From positions 108,952 through 172,951 of the forward strand of contig NIVC01002192.1 in assembly GCA_002269645.1 (NCBI GenBank): 64,000 nt of DNA, in the 5' to 3' direction. This document shows, piece by piece, positions 1 through 14,400 of this stretch. How positions within the stretch are numbered: the first letter of the stretch is position 1; each line of letters opens with the position of its first letter. The translations under genes were made by a program, and so were the position numbers. Source of the DNA: Macrostomum lignano (lineage: Eukaryota). Below the pieces are notes generated by a model, which was not told the DNA's origin, searched no databases, and saw only the letters and a list, made by a program, of their open reading frames with translations.

Positions 1-1941
1 ACAGCGTCTCATCAGCCTCCAGTGTCCGGTACTGCGTCTCATCAGCATCCAGTGTCCGGTACTGCGCCTCATCAGCATCCAGTGTCCGGTACTGCGCTTC
101 ATCAGCATCCAGTGTCCGGTACTGCGCCTCATCAGCATCCAGTGTCCGGAACAGCGTCTCATCAGCCTCCAGTGTCCGGTACTGCGTCTCACCAGCATCC
201 AGTGTTCGGTACAGTACCTCATCAGCATCCAGTGTCCGGTACTGCGTCTCATCAGCCTCCAGTGTCCGGTACAGTACCTCATCAGCATCCAGTGTCCGGT
301 ACTGCGGCTCATCAGCATCCAGTGTCCGGTACTGCGCCTCATCAGCATCCAGTGTCCGGTACAGCGTCTCATCAGCCTCCAGTGTCCGGTACTGCGTCTC
401 ATCAGCCTCCAGTGTCCGGTACAGTATCTCATCAGCATCCAGTGTCCGGTACTGCGTCTCATCAGCATCCAGTGTCCGGTACTGCGCCTCATCAGCATCC
501 AGTGTCCGGTACTGCGTCTCATCAGCCTCCAGTGTCCGGTACTGCGTCTCATCAGCATCCAGTGTTCGGTACAGTACCTCATCAGCATCCAGTGTCCGGT
601 ACTGCGTCTCATCAGCCTCCAGTGTCCGGTACAGTACCTCATCAGCATCCAGTGTCCGGTACTGCGTCTCATCAGCATCCAGTGTCCGGTACTGCGTCTC
701 ATCAGCATCCAGTGTCCGGTACTGCGCCTCATCAGCATCCAGTGTCCGGTACTGCGTCTCATCAGCCTCTAGTGTCCGGTACTGCGTCTCATCAGCCTCC
801 AGTGTCCGGTACTGCGTCTCATCAGCATCCAGTGTCCGGTACAGTGCCTCATCAGCCTCCAGCGTCCGGTACTGCGTCTCATCAGCATCCAGTGTTCGGT
901 ACAGTACCTCATCAGCATCCAGTGTCCGGTACTGCGTCTCATCAGCCTCCAGTGTCCGGTACAGTACCTCATCAGCATCCAGTGTCCGGTACTGCGTCTC
1001 ATCAGCATCCAGTGTCCGGTACTGCGTCTCATCAGCATCCAGTGTCCGGTACTGCGCCTCATCAGCATCCAGTGTCCGGTACTGCGTCTCATCAGCCTCT
1101 AGTGTCCGGTACTGCGTCTCATCAGCCTCCAGTGTCCGGTACTGCGTCTCATCAGCATCCAGTGTCCGGTACAGTGCCTCATCAGCCCCCAGCGTCCGGT
1201 ACTGCACCTCACCATCAACTAGCCGGTTTTGCACAGTCGCAGCGCCCAATCACCGTCAACGCACCTCAGTCAATTCAAATCAATCCTGCGTCGATATATG
1301 TTACGGCCTCAATCGCAGGGCGGAAGGTGAACGCGCTAGTGGACTCGGGAGCTTCCTGCACCATTATCTCACGGGAAGCTTACCAAAGTATGCCGAAACA
1401 GAGCGTCAGAGATTTGGCCGGTGCTGAAGGCTACGTTAGCTTAGCAAACGGCAGCCCGATCGAAATCGAGAGAACAGTCCTGTTGCGACTGTCAATCGCT
1501 GATAAAGTAATAGATACTCCAGCCTTGGTAGTCAGCGGAGTGAAGTACCAACTGGTATTGGGATCCGACTTCTGCAGGGACAACAGTTGCGTCATCGACT
1601 ACAAGACAGCTGTCTTTTCAGTGCAGGACACTGCAATCCCGTTCCGATGGCAAGCTGAGCGCCCGATCGTTTGCAGAATTTTGGCGACAAGGTCCAGCAC
1701 AATACCGCCAGGTCATCAAGCAGTTCTGTCAGCAAGGCTGGAGAGCAAAGGACGACGGAACAGAGGGTGTGTCGGTCTAACTGAGAATCTCGGGGCGAAC
1801 GATTTGGCAGCTGGCCGCTGGCTTGCTAAGGCCTTAGTGATCCCAAATAGCGGCAGCCGTCTGCCGACTCGACTCATCAATATCACGGAGGAGCCAGTCA
1901 GAATTCGCCAAGGTTGTACGCTCGGGTGGTTCTGCCCCTAG
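1..1941 (+). CDS. gag-pro: Gag C-terminal repeat region plus aspartic protease (5'-partial)
   Basis: About 40 in-frame 10-aa repeats (SGTA[S/P]HQHPV), then the retropepsin motif ALVDSGAS and LVLGSDF, then a spacer typical of gypsy pol. Joins the RT frame if one C is added to the C-run near 1936. Confidence 0.85.
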   Translation, partial: TASHQPPVSGTASHQHPVSGTAPHQHPVSGTALHQHPVSGTAPHQHPVSGTASHQPPVSGTASHQHPVFGTVPHQHPVSGTASHQPPVSGTVPHQHPVSGTAAHQHPVSGTAPHQHPVSGTASHQPPVSGTASHQPPVSGTVSHQHPVSGTASHQHPVSGTAPHQHPVSGTASHQPPVSGTASHQHPVFGTVPHQHPVSGTASHQPPVSGTVPHQHPVSGTASHQHPVSGTASHQHPVSGTAPHQHPVSGTASHQPLVSGTASHQPPVSGTASHQHPVSGTVPHQPPASGTASHQHPVFGTVPHQHPVSGTASHQPPVSGTVPHQHPVSGTASHQHPVSGTASHQHPVSGTAPHQHPVSGTASHQPLVSGTASHQPPVSGTASHQHPVSGTVPHQPPASGTAPHHQLAGFAQSQRPITVNAPQSIQINPASIYVTASIAGRKVNALVDSGASCTIISREAYQSMPKQSVRDLAGAEGYVSLANGSPIEIERTVLLRLSIADKVIDTPALVVSGVKYQLVLGSDFCRDNSCVIDYKTAVFSVQDTAIPFRWQAERPIVCRILATRSSTIPPGHQAVLSARLESKGRRNRGCVGLTENLGANDLAAGRWLAKALVIPNSGSRLPTRLINITEEPVRIRQGCTLGWFCP

Positions 1942-4900
1942 AATCCACCGAACCGTTGAACACCATCAAGCTCTTAGCCGTAGAGTCAGGAGACGATCCA
2001 CAGGAAGAGCCGAAGTTCCAAGGCAGCGACAGCCCTTCGGAAGCAGACTTGCTACCAAACTCGTACGGCGACTGTGGACTGTCGACGAAAGAAGACGAAG
2101 AATTTAGAATCCTTGTCCGGAGTTACGGCGATGTGTTCACGACCAAGCAGACTTCAAGCAAGTTAACTACCGTGGTGGAGCATGAAATTAACACCGAGAA
2201 TGCGCGCCCAATCAAGATCCCACCGCGTCGTCTGCCTCCCCACTTACAGCCAGAAGTAGATCGTCAAGTCAACGAGTTGCTGGAAAAGGGGCAGATCGAA
2301 GAAGCACAGTCACCATGGTGCTTTCCTTTGGTGTGCGTAAAGAAGAAATCAGGGGAAATGAGGATGTGCGTCGATTATCGGAAGTTGAATGAGGTCACCG
2401 TCAAGGATGCAGTGCCGATGCCGAGGGTCGATGATGCGCTGGAGGCAGTACACGGCGCCAAGATCTTCTCGACAATGGACCTTCACAGCGGGTTTTGGCA
2501 AGTAGGGGTGAGACCTCAGGATCAGGACAAGACGGCGTTTGCAGTGCCGCATCGCGGACAATTTCGATGGAAGGTTATGCCGTTCGGCTTAGTGAACAGC
2601 CCAGCAACATTCACCAGGTTGATGGCAGCCGTTTTGGACAAGCAGATGTGGAAAACCTGTCTCGTCTACATCGACGATCTACTGGTTTGGTCAACCGACG
2701 TGGATGAACACCTGAGAAGACTGGAGGAAATATTCAGCAAGTTGCGGCAAGCAAATTTGTGCCTGAAGCCCCAGAAGTGTCACTTTTTGCAAAAGCAAGT
2801 GAAATTTCTCGGTCACACGCTGTCGGCTGCTGGCATCAGTACCGATGAGGAGAAAGTTCAAGAAGTGAAGAACTGGCCAACACCGCGATCCTCGACGGAG
2901 CTGCATTCATTCTTGGGCCTGTGTGGCTATTACAGAAAGTTTATTAAAGATTTCGCCGCAATAGCAGCGCCTCTAACTCGGTTGACAACAAAAGACGCAA
3001 AGTTTGAATGGAAAACGGAACAGCAGCTGGCGTTCGAAACATTGAAGGAACGAATGACAAGTTCAGAGGTTATGGCTCATCCGGATTTCTCCCCGGATGC
3101 CGGAGAGTTTATCCTCGATACTGATGGCAGTTCGAAGATGGGCATAGGAGCGGTACTTTCTCAAGTCCAGCCAGATGGAGCAGAACGAGTGATCGCCTAT
3201 GGGTCCAAGACACTAAATCAAGCCGAACGCAACTATTGTACGACTCGTTTAGAACTACTAGCGGTTGTGACTTTCATCATGAAGTTCAGATACTATCTGC
3301 TGGAAAAGCGTTCTGTCTGCGAACGGACCACAGCAGCCTGCAATGGTTAAAAAACTTCAGTGACGCCGAGGGACAGGTTGCTCGCTGGTTGGAGAAGTTG
3401 GCTCATTTCAGTACCGCATCGTTCACAGACCAGGTCGATCGCATGGCAACGCGGACGCAATGTCGAGGAAGCCAGTACGGAGACATTTCGGAGCGGAGAC
3501 ATGCCCGGCATGTGCGCAGCATCCAGAAGGACTAAATGCAGTCGAATTTGAACGATTCTCAGCCGGCAATCTGGCAAGCGAGCAGGATCAAGACGACGAT
3601 TTGAGAACAGTAAAGGAAGCGCTTGGCTCAAACCCAGTCCAGATAAAAGCGAGACAGCTTGGAGTCCACTGGCTAGAGCCGTCTGGACTCGAAAAGACGA
3701 CCTGGTGCTGCAAGAGAAAGTGCTCCTTGTGAGAAACAAAGACAGGCGCGATGAGTATCAAATGGTGCTGCCACGAAAGGCATTGGATCGTATCTTGAAA
3801 ACCCTACACGAGGGAGTGGGAGGTGGCCACATGGGCTTTGCGAAGACAAAATTTAAAGTGCTTCAGCGCTACTGGCGTCCAGGATTGTCTCGTGCCATTG
3901 AAGAATATATTCGCGGTTGTGCCACCTGCTGCAAGTCAAAGCCGGGCAAGCGAAACCGAGCACCCCTGCAACCGTTGACATTCGCAGCACCATTCGATTG
4001 CGTCATGATGGACATTGTCGGGCCGCTACCGCGGAGTAAGGCTGGAAACATTTATCTCCTGACAGTCCAAGATTCGTTTACGAAGTGGCCTGACGCGTAC
4101 CCGCTTCGCAACCAGAAGGCAAGGACGGTGGCAAGGGCGCTTTTCAATCGATGGATTAGCCAGCATGGATGTCCGAGTACTTTGCACAGTGACCAAGGAA
4201 GGAACTTCGAATCGCAAGTGATGCGCGAAATGTGCAGGATACTCGAGATCCGCAAGTCCAGAACCACAGCTTATCATCCGAGCGGAAATGGACAAGTAGA
4301 AAACTTCAATAAAAGTTTAAAATCCATCCTCAAGTGCTGCCTAGAGGACTCAGGACGAAACGACTGGGAAGAATTCGTCAGCTCTGCGTTAATGGCGTAC
4401 CGATCAAGCGTGCATCGAGCAACGGGTTATACTCCCCACTACATGGTCTATGGCACGGAGATGCGCCTACCGATAGACTTGACTGACCAGCCGCCACAGC
4501 CTGTCGATTCGCATGTAAATTTCGTCAAGGAGCTAGAAGACAAATTGCAGACAGCTCATCGCGCTGCTCGACAGCAGTTGAATACTTATCAGCGGCGACA
4601 GAAGGACCAGTACGATAAAAGAACCCGAGGATCCGATATTCAGGAGGGTGACCATGTCTTCGTCTACAGCCCCGCCCTGAAACCAGACGAAGCCGCAAAG
4701 TTTCACGTAAGCTGGCTCGGCCCAGTGAAGGTGCTCGAAAGAAGATCCGAGGTGCTCTTCAAAGTGGAAAACCCGTCAAATCGTAAAAAGTCGAAGTTCG
4801 TCCACTTCAACAACCTCCGGAAGTTCGCTCGACCGGCCGCCCTGGAAACACCAGTTAGGACCGCGGCACCGCCGGAGGTGGTCGACGAGACGGACTCGGA

Positions 4901-5108
4901 GACAGAGGCGGAATGCGAGACTTGGACTCGGCCTCAACTGATGCCGCCACAGGACGCCGAGGAAGTCGCCGAGGTGCTGGAAGAGCAGATGGAGTTGGTT
5001 GACGACCCGCAGCCTACTCATAACCCGGTGGAAGCTGCACCTGAGCCTCGAAGGTCCGGAAGGTTGCGACGGCCGCCGGATCGCTACGGCCAGCCAGTGA
5101 CATTCTAA
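1914..5108 (+). CDS. pol: Pol: reverse transcriptase, RNase H and integrase, with about three single-base frameshifts in the RH-IN linker (~3305, ~3408, ~3715)
   Basis: RT: MCVDYRKLN, MDLHSGFWQV, MPFGL, YIDD. RH: LDTDGS, AYGSKTL, ELLAVV, RTDHSSL, HRPGRSHGNADAMSR. IN: H-x6-H...C-x2-C, D-D-E (MDIVGP, HSDQG, GQVE), GPY/F-like WLGPVKV, tail RRSGRLRRPPDRY. Confidence 0.95.
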
Positions 5109-5522
5109 TGGGTTACTCGTCATCGTGAAGTCTCATCAGTTTCATATGCGATTATCGTTAAAAGCCAGAAAAATATTTCGCGAATGCGTCATTCATCATA
5201 AATACGAGTACTTCATCAATGCATCATTCATCATGAGTACGAGCAGTTCGCCAATGCGTCATTCAAGAAATTCGTTAATGCGTCATTAAGTCATTTTAAT
5301 CGCATCTTCATCGAAGTTTTGACGAGAATCAAATTTTGCCTACAAAATCTATGCATCGGTGGAGGGTATTCGGACTGGCATCCGGTGAAAACTCGAATTT
5401 GCGCTGGGACTTTACGATGCAGGGCCACGGTCCGAGGAGATGACGCTCTGGCAAGAGGGGAGCAGGAGTAAAATCTGGAGTCAGGGACAGTGTGTCGCAG
5501 GTTTGAGTACGTTGCTTTGCAG

Positions 5523-6470
5523 ATGGATTTGTACGCTGTCCTCCAAGTCGGACACACAGCCGAACGTGCCGAGATCAGGCGAGTCTATCGACAGCTAGCG
5601 CTCTTCTGGCACCCGGACAAGCACCCGGACAAGGAACTCGCAGGACGCCGTTTCCAAGAAATTGAGACTGCTGGTAGAATTCTATCGTGTCCATATCGCC
5701 GAGCGATGTACGACCAGTTGGGCGATAAATCAATCCCGTATGACGAGGCTGTAACCTTCGCAATGACGTTCATACCTCCTACTGGTGTAAGAATGCCGGC
5801 GGACATCGAAGAGGGAGTACAGCAAAGGCGAGAAGTTGAAGAAGCTCAGCGCAAGGAAGCTGGTCTCAGGCAGGGGAGACAGGGACAGAGGAACGATTAC
5901 GAAGCGGATGGCTACATTCTAATCTCGGACGACGATGAGAGCGAGGAGTCGGATGAGTGTAGCATCGACACAGAAGAAGAAGACGAGTTGCTGGCATCGG
6001 ATGGCTCCTCCGGAAGTAGTGAGTCAGAAGCTATGGAGATCGATGTACCGGAAAGCAAGGAGGTTGTCTCACATCGCGCGTCGGGAGCAATATGGGATGA
6101 TGAAAAGCTGTCGTTATCGGCAGCTGCGCGTCAGCTCCGCCATCGTTTGATGAAGCATATTTTGGCTGGACAGTCGGACGGAATCGTGTCAGTGCTCACG
6201 GCTATGAGACGGCTGTTTCGAGACTCGCAGCGAGAACCGAGGAGCGCACTGTCAATGGTCCTGCTGCAGGCGTTGTTCTTCATCCGCAGAGATATCGCTC
6301 CGGTAAAGCGTCAGAGAGCAGGCCGCCGTTACTGGTCTAGGCAGAGTTTTGATTGTTTCGTCCGACAGCTCTGTCACGAGCTCATCCCGCTGTTCGGTTT
6401 GCGCCGGCCCGGCAGGCTGCTCGAGGTCCTGAAAAGCTGCGTCGGTCTCCCTGGACTTCGGGTTCGCTAG
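5523..6470 (+). CDS. J-domain (DnaJ/Hsp40-type) protein, 315 aa, in the retrotransposon env position
   Basis: MDLYAVLQV...EIRRVYRQLALFWHPDKHPDKELAGRRFQEIETAGRILSCPYRRAMYDQLG is a complete J domain with the HPD motif. An acidic stretch and a helical, basic C-terminus follow. Intronless; lies between the IN stop and the PPT. Confidence 0.9.
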   Translation: MDLYAVLQVGHTAERAEIRRVYRQLALFWHPDKHPDKELAGRRFQEIETAGRILSCPYRRAMYDQLGDKSIPYDEAVTFAMTFIPPTGVRMPADIEEGVQQRREVEEAQRKEAGLRQGRQGQRNDYEADGYILISDDDESEESDECSIDTEEEDELLASDGSSGSSESEAMEIDVPESKEVVSHRASGAIWDDEKLSLSAAARQLRHRLMKHILAGQSDGIVSVLTAMRRLFRDSQREPRSALSMVLLQALFFIRRDIAPVKRQRAGRRYWSRQSFDCFVRQLCHELIPLFGLRRPGRLLEVLKSCVGLPGLRVR

Positions 6471-6589
6471 GGTGCCCAGTTCCGATTCATACCGTATTTT
6501 CTGCTTAATTGTACGTATGTTGTTACGCTCGTACTGTATGGGTTTATTTGCATGCTAGTGGGGTCAAGCTTCCTGGGGGAATGGCTCAG

Positions 6590-7110
6590 CAGCTGTGCGG
6601 CGCCAGTGCGCTTCCTGCCGGCTTCTGCGGCGGCCACTTGCGCGTCCTGCCGGCCATCTGCGCGCCTCGCCCGGCCGCCTTCGCGTCTTGCCGCGGCCAC
6701 CTGCGTGTCCTGCCGGCCACTTGCGCGTCCTGCCGGCCACCTGCGCGTCCCGCCCGGCCACCTGCGTGCCCTGCCGGCCATTTGCACTTCCTGCCGGCCA
6801 CTTGCGCGTCCTGCCGGCCACCTGCGCGTCCCGCCCGGCCGCCTTCGCGTCTTGCCGGCCACCTGCGTGCCCTGCCGGCCACCTGCGTGTCCTGCCGGCC
6901 ACTTGCGCGTCCTGCCGGCCACCTGCGCGTCCCGCCCGGCCACCTGCGTGCCCTGCCGGCCATCTGCACTTCCTGCCGGCCACTTGCGCGTCCTGCCGGC
7001 CACTTGCGCGTCCTGCCGGCCACCTGCGCGTCCCGCCCGGCCACCTGCGTGCCCTGCCGGCCATCTGCACTTCCTACAGGCCATCTGCGCGTCCTGCCGG
7101 CCACCTGCGA
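6590..7110. repeat. GC-rich ~20-22 bp tandem array (CCTGCCGGCCACCTGCGCGT) in the retroelement 3' UTR
   Basis: Visible degenerate repeat; it produces the overlapping spurious ORFs at 6467-7280. Confidence 0.9.
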
Positions 7111-7353
7111 TGGTTTTCTGTGGCGCCAGCTTTGATGTAAAGCCTATTCCGTGCCCCGTGGTTGCTCTGACGAACTTGCGTGCAGAAAACCAGTATTTTT
7201 TTTTCATATTTCTTTTGCGGCAACCATTTTTCTTTTTCCCCTTTGCATTAGTTTGTTTCCAATTTTTTTGTTGTTTTTGATTTTTTTGCTTTGTTATTTA
7301 AAAAATTTGGAATCCCAGTCGCCGTGGTTCGAGCTCCGCCCTGTTTTTTTTGT

Positions 7354-7365
7354 AGGAGGGGAGGG
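7354..7365 (+). promoter_or_regulatory. Polypurine tract (plus-strand priming site)
   Basis: AGGAGGGGAGGG directly before the LTR 5' TGT, preceded by a T-tract. Confidence 0.9.
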
Positions 7366-8270
7366 TGTAGTGCATGCGCCCTTGTCAGTTGGCAGGGCGC
7401 GTTGCACTTTGGGGCTGGTTGGGGGAGTTGGCGGGCGTGGCAGGGTCTGGCCCCCGGCCGGGCTTTGCGCGTGCCCCTCCCCAGCCGTGCCCCTGCCCCG
7501 TGCTCAGGGCTGGTTGGCTGCGGCCGGGCCAGCTTTGGCGCGGGTGCAGCCCCTCCCCCTTAGGCGGGGTTTTGATTGGCTGGGCCGGCGTGGTTTGTTT
7601 TGGTGAGCTTAGCCGGTGGGGCCGTCTGCCCCAGGGTTTGGGTGCTATTTATGGTGCGACTCTGGCTCTTGCCCACCACCTGCGTGCTTTTTGTGTTTTG
7701 GTGTGCTCCGAGAGTGCAAGCGCGAGACCTGATAAAAGAAACAGCAACATTAGCTACTTTGATAAAAGAAACAGCAACATTAGCTACTTGGATAAAAGAA
7801 ACACAATAGCCTAATTGAGAAGAGTCTTGGAGAATTAAGAAGAAGTCGGAAACTGCGCTTGAGACCTGCGAATAATAAACGGTGAACAGTCATCTGGCCA
7901 CTGGTAAGCCGCCTGCTGTTTGAGTCCTTTCTTTCCGGGAAGCTTGCTAGGCCGAATTCTTGCCAGAGCGTCATAACGCCGGGAGACCATATAGCTTCTG
8001 TAGTACGGTACCGTTTATCATATATATTGCGTACGCCCTACGGTATAGAGAATAGAAGCACTCGAGAGTGTCACCACACCTCGAGCCGCAGCGTGAACTC
8101 TGAGTGTCACAACACCAGAGGGATCGAATTATTATCGCAGAGCGTCGCCACGCCTGCTCGTCGTATTCATAAAAGTACAGACAGAGCGTCACTACGCCTG
8201 TTATATCACATATAATATACATGTATATTGTACTCGGGACTGGGCACCCAAGCCGACCCGGGTTACAACA
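7366..8270 (+). repeat. 3' LTR (905 bp)
   Basis: TGTAGTG...GGGTTACAACA termini, AATAAA at 7874-7879, and an alignable copy at 27548-28285. Confidence 0.9.
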
Positions 8271-8380
8271 CCCTAATGAGATCCCACCCAGCTCAACCCT
8301 AATGAGATCCCAGCTCAACCTCTCTGAGATCCCAGCTCAACCCTAATGAGATCCCATCTCAACCTCTCTGAGATCCCAGA
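8271..8380. repeat. Intronic ~22-bp repeat CCCTAATGAGATCCCAGCTCAA, interrupted by the retrotransposon
   Basis: About 4 visible copies abutting the LTR end. Confidence 0.85.
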
Positions 8381-8406
8381 TCAGCACCACTAACATCCCT
8401 GCTCAC

Positions 8407-11400
8407 CTCCAAGGACGCATTCAACCGGTCGTTGGCGTCGCCAGCGTTGGCCTGAAGGCGCCGGACCTCCGCCGCGTCACCTTCGGCCGCGGTGCTCAGC
8501 GCAGTGATCTCGGTGCCCAGCTGAAGCAGCCGGACATCAGCGGCGCCGGCGCCGTCCATCGCAGCTCCAGTGAGGTTGAGCGCGGCCGTCAGGTAGGATG
8601 AGGCGTAGGAGATCCCCAGAGACTGGGAGCCGGCCTCGGCTGTGCCCGCACTGATCCGGGCCTGCACCTCGGCCAGCCGACTTTTCACTGATGGGTTGGG
8701 TGGGGGTTACGGGATCTGTCAGACTCAGGCTCAAAGCTTATGGAGCATTCAACTTCGCAATACGTACTGGCCTGCTCCTGCGACAGGGTGCTGTTGTGCC
8801 GGTCCTTCACCGGGATCAGCACCCGGTTCTTCCGGGTCCAGAAGTCCTCGGTTTTTTTCGCCAGCAGCTGAGTGGCCTCCAAATAGTCCGGCTGGCTGAC
8901 AAAGGCATCGCCGCGAGACTTGCTGGCCTCCAGCTGGCGGAGGAAGTCTGCGGGATGGGGGCGGTTGGTGGCTTAGGTTAGTAGGCATGGGCAAGGGTTT
9001 GCTGGGTAGGGGTGTGTGGGGCAGGGTTTGTGGGGCAGGAATGTGTGGGGCAGGGGTTTGTGGGGCAGGGGTTTGTGGGGCAGGGGTTTGTGGGGCAGGG
9101 GTTTGTGGGCAGGAATGTGTGGGCAGGGGTTTGTGGGCAGGGGTTTGTGGGGCAGGGGTTTGTGGGGCAGGGGTGTGGGGGCAGGGAATTGTGGGCAGGG
9201 GTGTGTGGGGCAGGGGTGTGGGGGGCAGGAGTATGGGATTCGATCAGGGGCGAAGTGGCTCTCAGTCGGGGCCAACGCACCGGTTGCATCCGCGTCCATC
9301 AGCTGGCTGGAGTTCTGCAGTGACTGCAGGCTGGTCAGGGCCTCCTCAGCCTGGTCTCTGGTGTCATTCTGGTCCTTCATCAGAGCCAGAGTCTGGAATT
9401 AGCCAGTTTTCAATACCACAGCTCAAATAAATCTCCAGAATGACAGGCGAATCTGCCAGCGAGCTCACCTGAGCATCTTCGGCTTCCTGTCGCTTCCTGA
9501 GCTGGTCGAGTTTCTCCTGCACCGGGCCGAGGCCCACGTCGCGACCTCCTTCGCTGGCGAGGGTGGCGGCTTCGGCCTGCAGGGCGGGGAATGGGAAGAG
9601 GACTGAAGAGGAAAACTGGGATACTCGGAACAGCGGGTGAGGGGGGAAGTGGGATAAGTTTTTGAAACTAACAAGCGAGCCAAATCTGATCCTTGAGGCT
9701 GAAATCTGTGCTGCGGCGCAAAATTACTTGCTGTAAGCGCCGAAATGATTGCTGTAAGCGCTGAAATGAGTGATGTAAGCGCCTAAATGAATGCTGTAAG
9801 CACCGAAATGATTGCTGTAAGCACCGAAATGATTGCTGTAAGCGCTGAAATGAGTGATGTAAGCGCTGAAATGAGTGATGTAAGCGCCAAAATGATTGCT
9901 GTAAGCACCGAAATGATTGCTGTAAGCGCCGAAATGATTACTGTAAGCACCGAAATGATTGCTGTAAGCGCCTAAATGAATGCTGTAAGCGCCTAAATGA
10001 TTGCTGTAAGCGCCGAAATGATTGCTGTAAGCACCGAAATGATTGCTGTAAGCACCGAAATGATTGCTGTAAGCGCTGAAATGAGTGATGTAAGCGCCTA
10101 AATGAAGAGAACATATGAGTAAAGGCTTCCTATACTAAAGAGGGGGGGGGGCGGTTTCGCCATCATGACACTGAGCAGCCTCACATCGAACTGCTGCAGC
10201 TCCGAGTCGATCCGCACCAGCAGCCGCTCCAGCTCGCTGCCGTTGAGCACCGCGGCCTGGTCGGCCCGCAGCCGCTGCAGACTGGAGTTGGCGGAGTCGG
10301 TGCTGTCGATCAGCATGAAGATGCAGCTGTCGCAGACTTTGCAGCCGCCCTGCGGGGTGTTCAGCCAGCCGCGCCGGCAGATGTCGCAGCGCTCGCCGCG
10401 GACCCCGTCGACGCACTGGCACTGGCCCGTGACATTGTCGCAGCCGGCGAAGTTCGCGCCGATGCAGCTGGTGCACTCTGGGGGCGCGGGCGGCGTGGGA
10501 TTCCGTTATGGGCTGGCCAGATCCCGGTAAAGAATTCCTCAGACTGATGGGATATCTTCTCTTGGACACAGAAATCCTCATGCTGGAATCCCAACACAGA
10601 AATCCTCATGCTGGAATCCCAACACAGAAATCCTCATGCTGGAATCCCAACACAGAAATCCTCATGCTGGAATCCCAACACAGAAATCCTCATGCTGGAA
10701 TCCCAACACAGAAATCCTCATGCTGGAACCCGAACTCAGAAATCCTCAAGCTGGAATCCCAACACAGAAATCCTCATGCTGGAATCCCAACACAGAAATC
10801 CTCATGCTGGAATCCGAACTCAGAAATCCCAATTAAACCCCAAATCTCAGAGATCACAATGTTTAATCACAAACCCCTAAATTGAAATCCCCCCTCTCAC
10901 CTGTGCACCCGTCAGGTCCGTAGCCATAGTAACCGGGCAGGCACCGGTCGCACTTGTCGCCGGTGACGCCCGGCCGGCACTGGCACAGGCCGGTGTCGCG
11001 GTCGCACTGCGAGCTCAGGCTGGCGTTGCCGCAGCCGCAGTCGCGACAGCCGCCGGCCGACCCGAAGCCCCAGCGGTCGGGCTCGCACTCGGAGCAGCGG
11101 GCGCCGCTGACGCCCTGACGGCAGAGGCACTCGCCAGTGCGTCGGTTGCACTTCACGGTGCCGTTGCGGTCGCAGGCGCAGTCTGGAGCAGAATGGGGAG
11201 TTGAGCTCGGGGTCTGCGAGACCTGCCGCTAATTAGGGAGTCGCAGCGTGAAGGGTTCGCTGTCTGACACAGTCTGACACTATCTGACACTGTCTGCACA
11301 GTCTGACACAGTCTGACACTGCCTGACACAGTATTACACAGTCTGACACAGTATTACACAGTCTGACACAGTATTACACAGTCTGACACAGTATTACACA

Positions 11401-14400
11401 GTCTGACACAGTATTACACAGTCTGACACTGCCTGACACAGTCTGACACAGTCTGATACAGTCTGACACTGCCTGACACAGTCTGACACAGTCTGATACA
11501 GTCTGACACAGTCTGACACAGTCTGACACAGTCTGACACAGTCTGACACAGTCTGAAACAGTCTGACACAGTCTGACACAGTCTGACACTGCCTGACACT
11601 GCCTGACAGTCTGACACTGCCTGACACTGCCTGACAGTCTGACACTGCCTGACACTATCTGACACAGTCTGACACAGTATTACACAGCTCTGACACTGCC
11701 TGACACTGCCTGACACAGTCTGACACAGTCTGACACAGTCTGACACAGTCTGACACAGTCTGACACTGCCTGACACTGCCTGACGGTCTGACACTGCCTG
11801 ACACTGTCTGACACAATCTGACACAGTATTACACAGCTCTGACACTGCCTGACACTGCCTGACACAGTCTGACACTGCCTGACACTGCCTGACAGTCTGA
11901 CACTGCCTGACACTGTCTGACACAGTCTGACACAGTATTACACAGCTCTGACACTGCCTGACACTGCCTGACACAGTCTGACACAGTCTGACACAGTCTG
12001 ACACAGTTTGACACTGCCTGACACTGCCTGACAGTCTGACACTGCCTGACACTGTCTGACACAGTCTGACACAGTATTACACAGCTCTGACACTGCATAT
12101 CCTTTAATTAGACCCTTTTCGATCAGACACACGGGCCGTCGGAAAAGTATCAGGGGCGGATGAGAGTATGGCTCACCTGTGCAGTTCTTCGCGTCCACTG
12201 AGTCGCCGAACATCCAGTCGGTGCACAGCTCGCAGTAGTAGCCAGTGGAGTTCTGGCAGCGCAGGCACTCGCCAGTGATATTGTGACAGGAGCCCGGCTC
12301 CATCAGGATGTTGCCGCTGCACGGGCAGGGTTGGCAGGGCAGGTTGCGAGCCGGGTCGCCATAGTAACCGGGCTTGCACCTGGCAGGGTTCGGTTTAAAC
12401 TGATTATTAATCTACTAGTATTAATTTCAAGTTAATAATCTGAGCACAAGTACGTAGCCTCTATTTTTGCAATTTTATCGATCCGCTCTGACTGGCAGTG
12501 TACGCACCCACCACCCCATTTTATCGATCCGCTCTGATCGGCAGTGTACACACCCACCACCCCATTTTATCGATCCGCTCTGACTGGCAGTGTACGCACC
12601 GACCACCCTATTTTATCGATCCGCTCTGTTTGGCAGTTTACGCACCCACCACCCAATTTTCTCGATCCGCTCTGACTGGCAGTGTACGCACCGACCACAA
12701 TATTTTATCGATCCGCTCTGTTTGGCAGTTTACGCACCCACCACCCAATTTTCTCGATCCGCTCTGACTGGCAGTGTACGCACCGACCACCCTATTTTAT
12801 CGATCCGCTCTGTTTGGCAGTTTACGCACCCACCACCCAATTTTCTCGATCCGCTCTGATAGGCAGTGTACACACCCCATTACCCCATTTTATCGATCCG
12901 CTCTGATAGGCAGTGTACACACCCCATTACCCCATTTTATCGATCCGCTCTGATCGGCAGTGTTCAGGATTCCAATAAACAGATTTGAGGTAAATAACGA
13001 ACAGGAACTCACCTCTCACAATTCACCCCATCGTATCCCTCTTTGCAGGTGCAAATATCCATATCGCTACCAAGCGCTTCGCATCTCTCGGCGAAATTCC
13101 TCGGGCAGCGGGGATATCTTTGCAACGCGGAGTTCAGGAAGTGCGGGCACTGGCTACTGCTGCAATGGTCGGGTTGGCGGGTTCTCTGAATGTTTATAAA
13201 AGGAGAGAAAGTGCAAGTAGTGCTACTGTTAGTAAATTAAAGAAAAGCGGGGAATATTACTTGGACACGGCTGGCCCGGGGCAGCGGCAGGGCCGGCAGA
13301 TTGTCTTCCCATCGGACCCGGTTTCAATCACGTGACCCGGCGGGCAGACCTCGCACTTCTTGCCGTAGAAGCCGTCGCGACAGTTCTGGAAAGTTAAAGT
13401 GCTTGTGAGTTGGGAATGGGGTGGGATTCTGATGGGGTGGGATTCTGACGGGATGGGATTCTGATGGGATGGGATTCTGGTGGGATGGGATTCTGATGGG
13501 ATGGAATTGTGATGGGATGGGATTCTGACGGGATGGGATTGTGATGGGATGGGATTCTGATGGGATAGGATTCTGATGGGATGGGATTCTGGTGGGATAG
13601 GATTCTGATGGGGTGGGATTCTGATGGGATGGGATTCTGATGGGATGGGATTCTGGTGGGATAGGATTCTGATGGGGTGGGATTCTGATGGGATGGGATT
13701 CTGATGGGATGGGATTCTGATGAGGTGGGATTCTGATGAGGTGGGATTCTGATGGGATGGGATTCTGATGGGGTGGGATTCTGATGGGGTGGGATTGTGA
13801 AGGGATGGGATTGTGATGGGATGGGATTGTGATGGGATGGGATTGTGATGGGATGGGATTGTGATGGGATGGGATTCTGATGGGATGGGATTGTGAAGGG
13901 ATGGGATTGTGATGAAATGGGATTGTGAAGGGATGGGATTGTGATGGGATGGGATTGTGAAGGGATGGGATTGTGATGGGATGGGATTCTGATGGGGTGG
14001 GATTCTGATGGGGTGGGATTGTGAAGGGATGGGATTGTGATGGGATGGGATTGTGATGGGATGGGATTGTGATGGGATGGGATTCTGATGGGATGGGATT
14101 GTGAAGGGATGGGATTGTGATGAAATGGGATTGTGAAGGGATGGGATTGTGATGGGATGGGATTGTGAAGGGATGGGATTGTGATGGGATGGGATTGTGA
14201 TGGGATGGGATTGTGATGGGATGGGATTGTGAAGGGATGGGATTCTGACGGGATGGGATTGTGATGGGATGGGATTGTGAAGGGATGGGATTGTGAAGGG
14301 ATGGGATTGTGATGGGATGGGATTGTGATGGGATGGGATTGTGATGGGATGGGATTGTGATGGGATGGGATTGTGATGGGATGGGATTGTGATGGGATGG

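Follow-up and report, generated by a model that had tools for sequence, protein, structure and literature searches.

A J-domain protein gene as the third open reading frame of a Ty3/gypsy retrotransposon clade of Macrostomum lignano

The locus

The window considered here is a stretch of 64,000 nucleotides from the Macrostomum lignano genome (assembly GCA_002269645.1, contig NIVC01002192.1, positions 108,952 to 172,951, forward strand), which begins inside a Ty3/gypsy long terminal repeat (LTR) retrotransposon carrying a gene for a J-domain protein behind pol. All features of the element described below lie on the plus strand. The J-domain gene is the third open reading frame (ORF3, 5523–6470). 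Its location between the integrase stop (5108) and the polypurine tract (PPT; 7354–7365) with the 3′ LTR (7366–8270), inside the LTR-bounded unit, was claimed by an original prediction made from the sequence alone, which also proposed checking whether the frame is always LTR-flanked; the end of the integrase was found upstream and the PPT and LTR downstream in 20 of 20 fetched copies. The spacer ahead of the gene (5109–5522) includes the position near 5290 where likeness to a related family, B, stops, a presumed recombination point, and it ends in a predicted splice acceptor (5512–5522), pyrimidine-rich and closing with CAG, that abuts the ATG and has similar counterparts in sister families.

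The window copy is otherwise a young Ty3/gypsy element with paired TG...CA LTRs, a primer-binding site, a PPT, a short target-site duplication (TSD) and, by Pfam, the expected pol order of protease, reverse transcriptase (RT), RNase H and integrase. Its partner 5′ LTR lies just upstream of the window (L021:7690–8589) and is 99.1% alike over 906 columns, with one mismatch and two gaps. Downstream of this LTR come the primer-binding site, a Gag frame of 306 aa with a single zinc knuckle (PF00098) and a 30-nt tandem array (10-aa unit) that starts upstream of the window, continues over 1–1215 and separates the Gag stop from the protease. Counting its upstream part (L021:9800–10000), the array extends in frame for about 1.4 kb and stays open in the pol frame. 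The original prediction had attributed these repeats to an expanded Gag, which proved mistaken: Gag stops before the array, which is in the −1 (protease/pol) frame, and in other J families the protease begins so soon after the 5′ LTR that a comparable array would not fit. In each of the six families scanned, a slippery heptamer, GGGAAA(A/C), follows the last zinc knuckle; the window family also has a predicted hairpin there (L021:9716–9780), and a −1 frameshift from Gag to pol at this site is likely.

The pol of the window copy, split into several frame pieces, comprises an aspartic protease (1300–1572; PF13650, E 7e-12), an RT core (2337–2822; PF00078, E 1.2e-38), an RNase H in two frames (3009–3410; PF17919/PF17917) and an integrase (3771–5108; PF17921, PF00665) with zinc finger, core, SH3-like end and an acidic tail up to the stop. 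Pfam finds no chromodomain in this integrase, unlike in chromoviruses, which carry one at the integrase C-terminus. Behind ORF3, the 3′ untranslated part contains a GC-rich imperfect repeat (6595–7110), and the distance from stop to LTR varies from 583 to 1050 nt among the 20 copies. The 3′ LTR (905 nt, TG...CA) contains a TATA-like box (7646), an AATAAA signal (7874) and a predicted splice donor (7904). Flank comparison places a 4-bp TSD at 8271–8274, and such a duplication is also present at two of three other copies having both ends located; the end motif was missed in two further copies. The element is antisense within a tandem-repeat intron of a gene with laminin EGF exons (8359–12411, minus strand). 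Its primer-binding site is presumed to be of the tRNA-Lys type, and on that basis a placement in the Gmr1/Osvaldo cluster is our guess. This cluster numbers 40 families in M. lignano (PMC12801592).

The J-domain protein

ORF3 translates without a stop to 315 aa and starts with a full J domain (5526–5714), as the original prediction had read it. Pfam DnaJ (PF00226) matches aa 2–64 over profile positions 1–63 of 63 (E 5.5e-18; score 65.3 bits, cut-off 27.8), and the HPD motif is intact at aa 30–32 (5610–5618), between helices II and III. J domains with this motif stimulate Hsp70, while the domains attached to them choose the client. A G/F-rich region, a zinc finger and a DnaJ_C domain are all absent, PF00226 being the sole Pfam match at E up to 0.1, and by its sequence layout (an HPD J domain with neither G/F region nor zinc finger) the product is a class C J-domain protein. 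It begins directly with the J domain; hydropathy averaged over 19 residues peaks at 1.33, in an internal helix, and neither a signal peptide nor a membrane anchor is apparent. The signal peptide, fusion peptide and transmembrane helix that characterize errantivirus-type third ORFs are lacking and the model is soluble, in agreement with the earlier view that the product is not an envelope.

An AlphaFold2 model built from a 19-row alignment (mean pLDDT 81.5) predicts the J domain, helices at residues 73–80 and 93–126, disorder over 129–193 and five helices over 200–307. These correspond to an element-specific helical extension (aa 73–126; 5739–5900), also apparent in the alignment, an acidic linker predicted to be disordered (5901–6107; net charge −23) and a conserved basic five-helix C-terminal domain (CTD; 6120–6443; net charge +17). 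In a structure search with the whole model, the J part matched solved J domains with Z about 10, and the CTD yielded generic helical matches only (best Z 7.8). The fold prediction proposed for the C-terminal part thus gave a five-helix domain, with pLDDT 88.8 and pTM 0.82 when the CTD was modelled alone. Nothing in a viral fold library matched this CTD model below E 0.33, a word-based search with aa 70–315 found no homologue among 3901 candidates, and DnaJ-X (PF14308) gave no Pfam hit to the CTD and an Atlas score of 0.77, inside the range of shuffled proteins. As modelled, the CTD is a well-folded module belonging to no named family.

DNAJC9, a class C J protein that acts as a histone co-chaperone, was considered as a possible family for the protein and rejected. 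The profile match stops at residue 66, and the CTD has a probability of 0.2% for the middle helical region (PF23302) or histone-binding tail of DNAJC9.

Copies in the genome and selection

The genome contains 32 DNA matches to the gene, 24 of them near full length at 99–100%. Protein matches covering aa 1–315 number 21, of which 20 are stop-free, and an open frame of at least 315 aa is present in 19 of the 20 fetched copies. LTR pairs of six copies are 0–4 substitutions apart, so the window family is young. Copy counts overstate the number of insertions because the M. lignano assembly is partly redundant (PMC12801592). In seven of the 20 copies (L010–L014, L019, L020) the stop at 6468–6470 reads TGG and the frame extends to 344–566 aa with a hydrophobic stretch, a form that looks derived, since other families stop at the site matching 315 aa. 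J elements also inflate the apparent J-protein count of the genome: close to half of 150 scored DnaJ matches are element copies, judged from their location. Among the other matches, a long intronless frame of 1449 aa on the minus strand (L230) has an N-terminal J domain and occurs at several genome sites; it lacks the element-type extension and may belong to another mobile or repeated gene.

With 0–3 differences in 19 of 20 loci, copies of the window family are too young for a test of selection within the family, and the ratio of nonsynonymous to synonymous divergence (dN/dS) was therefore estimated for pairs of families by a Nei-Gojobori script with bootstrap. Each of these comparisons has a broken copy as the partner, and this inflates the ratio. 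Between the window family (A) and family B (L022/L023), dN/dS is 0.10 over aa 1–82 (bootstrap 0.04–0.21), 0.16 in the linker and 0.24 in the CTD (0.14–0.40). C1138 and its kin give 0.11 for the J part and 0.23 for the CTD, and C620 against C17 gives 0.11 for the J part. The pair C2156 and C1811 gives 0.31, with an interval reaching 1.12, and the value of 0.44–0.46 for A against C1138 is unreliable at that distance. A nucleotide-only control shows mismatches by codon position of 0.19/0.21/0.44 (p 1e-13). On these comparisons the J ORF is kept under purifying selection between families.

These data bear on the possibility that the gene is a passenger of no use to the element, whether a host retrogene or an assembly chimera. 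The youth of the copies in the window family, which removes the within-family test, is compatible with such an origin. However, the gene occurs in many copies with different flanks and TSDs and in a consistent layout of integrase, J gene, PPT and LTR; its dN/dS between families lies far below 1, and neither the extension nor the CTD is present at eight host J loci examined. Two findings named beforehand as refuting the original prediction were not obtained: the gene is multi-copy with dN/dS of about 0.1 (J) and 0.24 (CTD), where a single copy evolving near 1 had been at issue, and the many near-full-length DNA matches, together with the location of all 20 fetched copies inside the element, speak against a retrogene or chimera lying outside the LTR unit. 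A passenger is thus highly improbable, and there is very little doubt that the J-domain gene is real and selected.

Sister families and the history of the clade

Sister families 25–40% identical in the J protein carry the gene in the same slot, and nine of their loci have LTR pairs 97–99.8% alike. Among 24 loci chosen from protein matches and examined for context, the J ORF stood directly behind pol in 11; one was a deleted remnant with integrase pieces, three were remnants without their own pol upstream, one lay behind a distant pol, and eight were ordinary host J genes, in which the extension and CTD are both absent. Ten additional loci had pol upstream in eight cases. At L060/L061 the distantly related pol (41% RT identity) stands 2.2 kb ahead of a decayed J ORF (HLD for HPD); this may be a nested remnant or a transfer between clades.

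Three layouts of the protein can be distinguished. The first, shared by the window family, C1138, C620 and C3853b, consists of J domain, extension, acidic linker and CTD. The second adds a chromodomain in the linker region (C2156; E 1.4e-12), which lies in ORF3 and not in the integrase; the ORF3 of this family matches an NCBI M. lignano record (P0002). In the third (the C471/C525/C340 group and C647), a TatD-like domain stands behind the CTD. Eleven of 12 diverse members retain HPD, with 4–6 basic residues around helix II.

A J-blind sample of 20 loci picked by RT likeness included four with a J domain, a CTD or the TatD end, nine that group with J families but have none of these, and seven in a sister group without J. 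Loci L190 and L191 hold derivatives of the TatD families: C150 retains only the TatD-like end, and C109 has lost the whole third gene. In an 18-row tree of RT and RNase H, the 11 J-family rows form one side of a branch (SH-aLRT 96); a shorter RT-core tree leaves the base open. The ORF3 tree repeats the deepest split, TatD families against the rest (TatD pair 99/99).

From mid-protease to the spacer (window about 1627–5290) the DNA of families A and B agrees at about 92%, but in the J ORF their dS reaches about 1.0, and the 3′ end and LTR do not align. We infer a recombination in which the module of J gene and LTR was swapped. The simplest reading of the sequence comparisons as a whole would be one capture and subsequent vertical descent, with domain gains, losses and one or more module swaps (A vs B) along the way. 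At least three different primer-binding sites occur after the 5′ LTR among J families (L084, L088, L096, L052), so the tRNA primer changed within the clade.

Relatives and origin of the J domain

A CTD profile run against 1.84 billion representatives returned nine hits: one M. lignano record, six other proteins and two false sums. The latter, a fish and a butterfly protein, were sums of weak repeats and were dropped. The window J ORF is contained in the UniRef M. lignano record P0009. P0017, a cluster mate of one CTD hit, has a best identity of 56% to anything in the genome, and P0014 has no match in the genome at 1e-25. All four full-length outside relatives retain HPD and CTD. By sequence likeness, relatives of the J-plus-CTD protein exist outside this assembly, and within the profile search the CTD appears confined to this protein family. 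A metagenome scan, of which 80 of 325 confirmed loci were kept, yielded ordinary DnaJ genes without CTD, RT or integrase, and no relative was found in the viral contigs searched.

The phylogeny proposed for placing the J domain among host proteins gave a divided answer. The tests do not reject monophyly of the element J domains (p-AU 0.87 and 0.39), nor do they reject the alternatives, and no donor is singled out. DNAJC9 as donor is unsupported: it ranks low among the candidates, and the likeness ends at the J domain.

Predicted expression signals

A yAG with a pyrimidine-rich run stands 0–16 nt before the start in 11 family contexts, read by eye with no splice-site model. A GTRAG donor lies 166–258 nt past the TATA-like box in six of eight LTRs, where 0.2–0.9 such sites per LTR are expected at any position. 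Three families (C340, C525 and C471) have a J frame without its own ATG; their LTR donor is preceded by A and their acceptor followed by TG in the J frame, so that the predicted splice would create an in-frame start codon.

Transcript evidence comes from assembled contigs of seven distinct runs out of 24; that these runs are RNA is only a guess, and rare forms drop out of contigs. The contigs cover the J ORF and gag, and level, strand and ends are not readable from them. No canonical heat-shock element was found in five LTRs (one mismatch allowed) or in 15 J-family 3′ regions. Supplement 2 of PMC12801592 contains a mildly heat-induced DnaJ-only transcript cluster with a Pfam score like that of the J protein; the cluster itself could not be mapped.

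Proposed function

Our preferred reading, to which we give about an even chance (roughly 0.5), is that ORF3, the long-kept third gene of one Ty3/gypsy clade, encodes a nuclear adaptor bringing host Hsp70 to a repressive or integration complex. The intact HPD and the basic helix II of most families suit an Hsp70-recruiting role, and the J protein likely recruits host Hsp70. A nuclear adaptor is favoured because the acidic linker, the basic helical domain and the chromodomain or nuclease-like fold of sister families are all suggestive of chromatin or nucleic acid, and the client is predicted to be bound to one or the other.

The proposed mechanism has three steps. ORF3 would be made from a spliced message with its donor in the 5′ LTR and its acceptor at the ATG, like the env of insect errantiviruses. 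The J domain would then stimulate Hsp70, an activity established for J proteins with HPD. In the last and weakest step, the basic CTD would hold a client in the nucleus, with a chromodomain or nuclease-like fold assisting in other families, and Hsp70 would either loosen a host repressive complex on element copies or remodel the integration complex. A narrower version is possible, though doubtful: that the clade encodes its own nuclear Hsp70 adaptor through env-style splicing, built on a constant J-plus-helical core with swappable modules (a histone-mark-reading chromodomain, a nuclease-like fold), which dismantles host silencing complexes on element copies.

Several observations weigh against the preferred reading. 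The ATG-less families C340, C525 and C471 are closely related and together amount to about one event. In four runs, contigs read across the acceptor with no junction or break, and among the pieces listed from a set of four runs no LTR loose end leads into the J ORF. The window family itself has no chromodomain. C647, a multi-copy family, has kept a 552-aa ORF and lost HPD. Nine of the 20 RT-selected loci group with J families yet show no J or CTD, being truncated, interrupted or deleted, and in C109 a full integrase is followed by the LTR, the J gene being cleanly missing. The existence of C109 and other J-less derivatives in the clade means that the J gene can be lost in cis, and together with the loss of HPD in C647 they show that neither gene nor motif is indispensable in cis.

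The C647 family also favours an Hsp70-independent scaffold, in which the J region and CTD would serve as a folded binding surface, for instance an integrase tether; it retains the long ORF without HPD in many copies, and the CTD is present in every full-length member. Against this, HPD persists in all but one of the 12 members at 25–40% identity, the J part has the lowest dN/dS, and the A and B integrases are about 90% identical while their CTDs are 62% identical, which argues against tight co-evolution with the integrase. Such a scaffold is improbable.

A particle chaperone, whose CTD would bind Gag or Gag-Pol so that Hsp70 aids assembly or uncoating, is the least unlikely of the alternatives. 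Viruses use J domains and Hsp70 in particle handling, and the gene has been kept across the clade. The repeat offered as the reason for such a chaperone, however, is not in Gag, the chromodomain and TatD-like add-ons suit a capsid client poorly, and in the sister clade long pol frames and numerous copies occur with no J gene at all.

The protein could also act as a decoy, drawing Hsp70 away from the loading of Argonaute/PIWI proteins and thereby weakening small-RNA silencing. In C. elegans, one Argonaute is supported by a J protein in Hsp70 binding and in small-RNA loading, but this J protein did not bind the PIWI protein PRG-1 (PMC11194074). No result of this analysis links the CTD to an Argonaute, and a chromodomain would be superfluous for a decoy; this explanation is somewhat less likely than a particle chaperone and slightly more so than a scaffold.

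Comparison with known systems

The LTR elements Juno and Vesta of bdelloid rotifers carry third ORFs that are not env and encode DEDDy exonucleases or GDSL esterases (PMC5408684). They share with the J elements a captured cellular domain without membrane anchor in the Ty3/gypsy env position, varying by family; no DnaJ or chaperone appears in the main text of that paper, however, and the J elements inherit one J-plus-CTD core through the clade, gaining add-ons. Among Drosophila errantiviruses, those of the springer subclade splice their env exon from an AU dinucleotide (PMC12992720). Env-F and the J ORF are both third ORFs before the 3′ LTR; env-F is made from a spliced message, as is predicted for the J ORF, and the AU splice resembles the predicted A+TG start of the ATG-less J families. 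In contrast to env-F, the J ORF has no signal peptide, fusion peptide or membrane anchor, and the J-element donor is predicted inside the LTR.

Class C J proteins such as DNAJC9 likewise combine an HPD J domain with a specific module and a charged linker and have no G/F region or zinc finger, but the likeness to DNAJC9 ends at the J domain and the protein described here is encoded by an element. Viral J domains are exemplified by the polyomavirus T antigen and by the capture of Jiv by pestiviruses. The likeness to these is one of concept, a selfish element carrying part of a J protein to use host chaperones; they belong to different virus classes, and the best viral fold match of the CTD has E 0.33. 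Heat-activated LTR retrotransposons of M. lignano, which use heat-shock elements in the LTR (PMC12801592), share the host and a tie to the heat-shock system, whereas no heat-shock element was found in 15 J-family 3′ regions. DnaJ or extra ORFs are not mentioned in the main text of that report.

The original prediction knew of no gypsy lineage with such cargo, and a full-text literature search, judged by title and the start of the abstract, with Repbase, GyDB entries and the earlier M. lignano element classification outside it, found no paper describing DnaJ or a J domain as retrotransposon cargo. PMC9004415, considered as a prior report, mentions DnaJ as the name of a host gene. Extra ORFs in gypsy elements are already known; a selected J-domain co-chaperone as cargo appears new within the literature searched.

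If Hsp70 is indeed recruited, a retrotransposon would bring along a factor for targeting the main chaperone of its host, as happens in some DNA viruses, and the link between Hsp70 and transposon control would become testable with one small protein in a host capable of transgenesis (PMC12801592). If the proposed action on silencing complexes is true, the clade would encode a chaperone-powered anti-silencing factor, a kind not described for retrotransposons.

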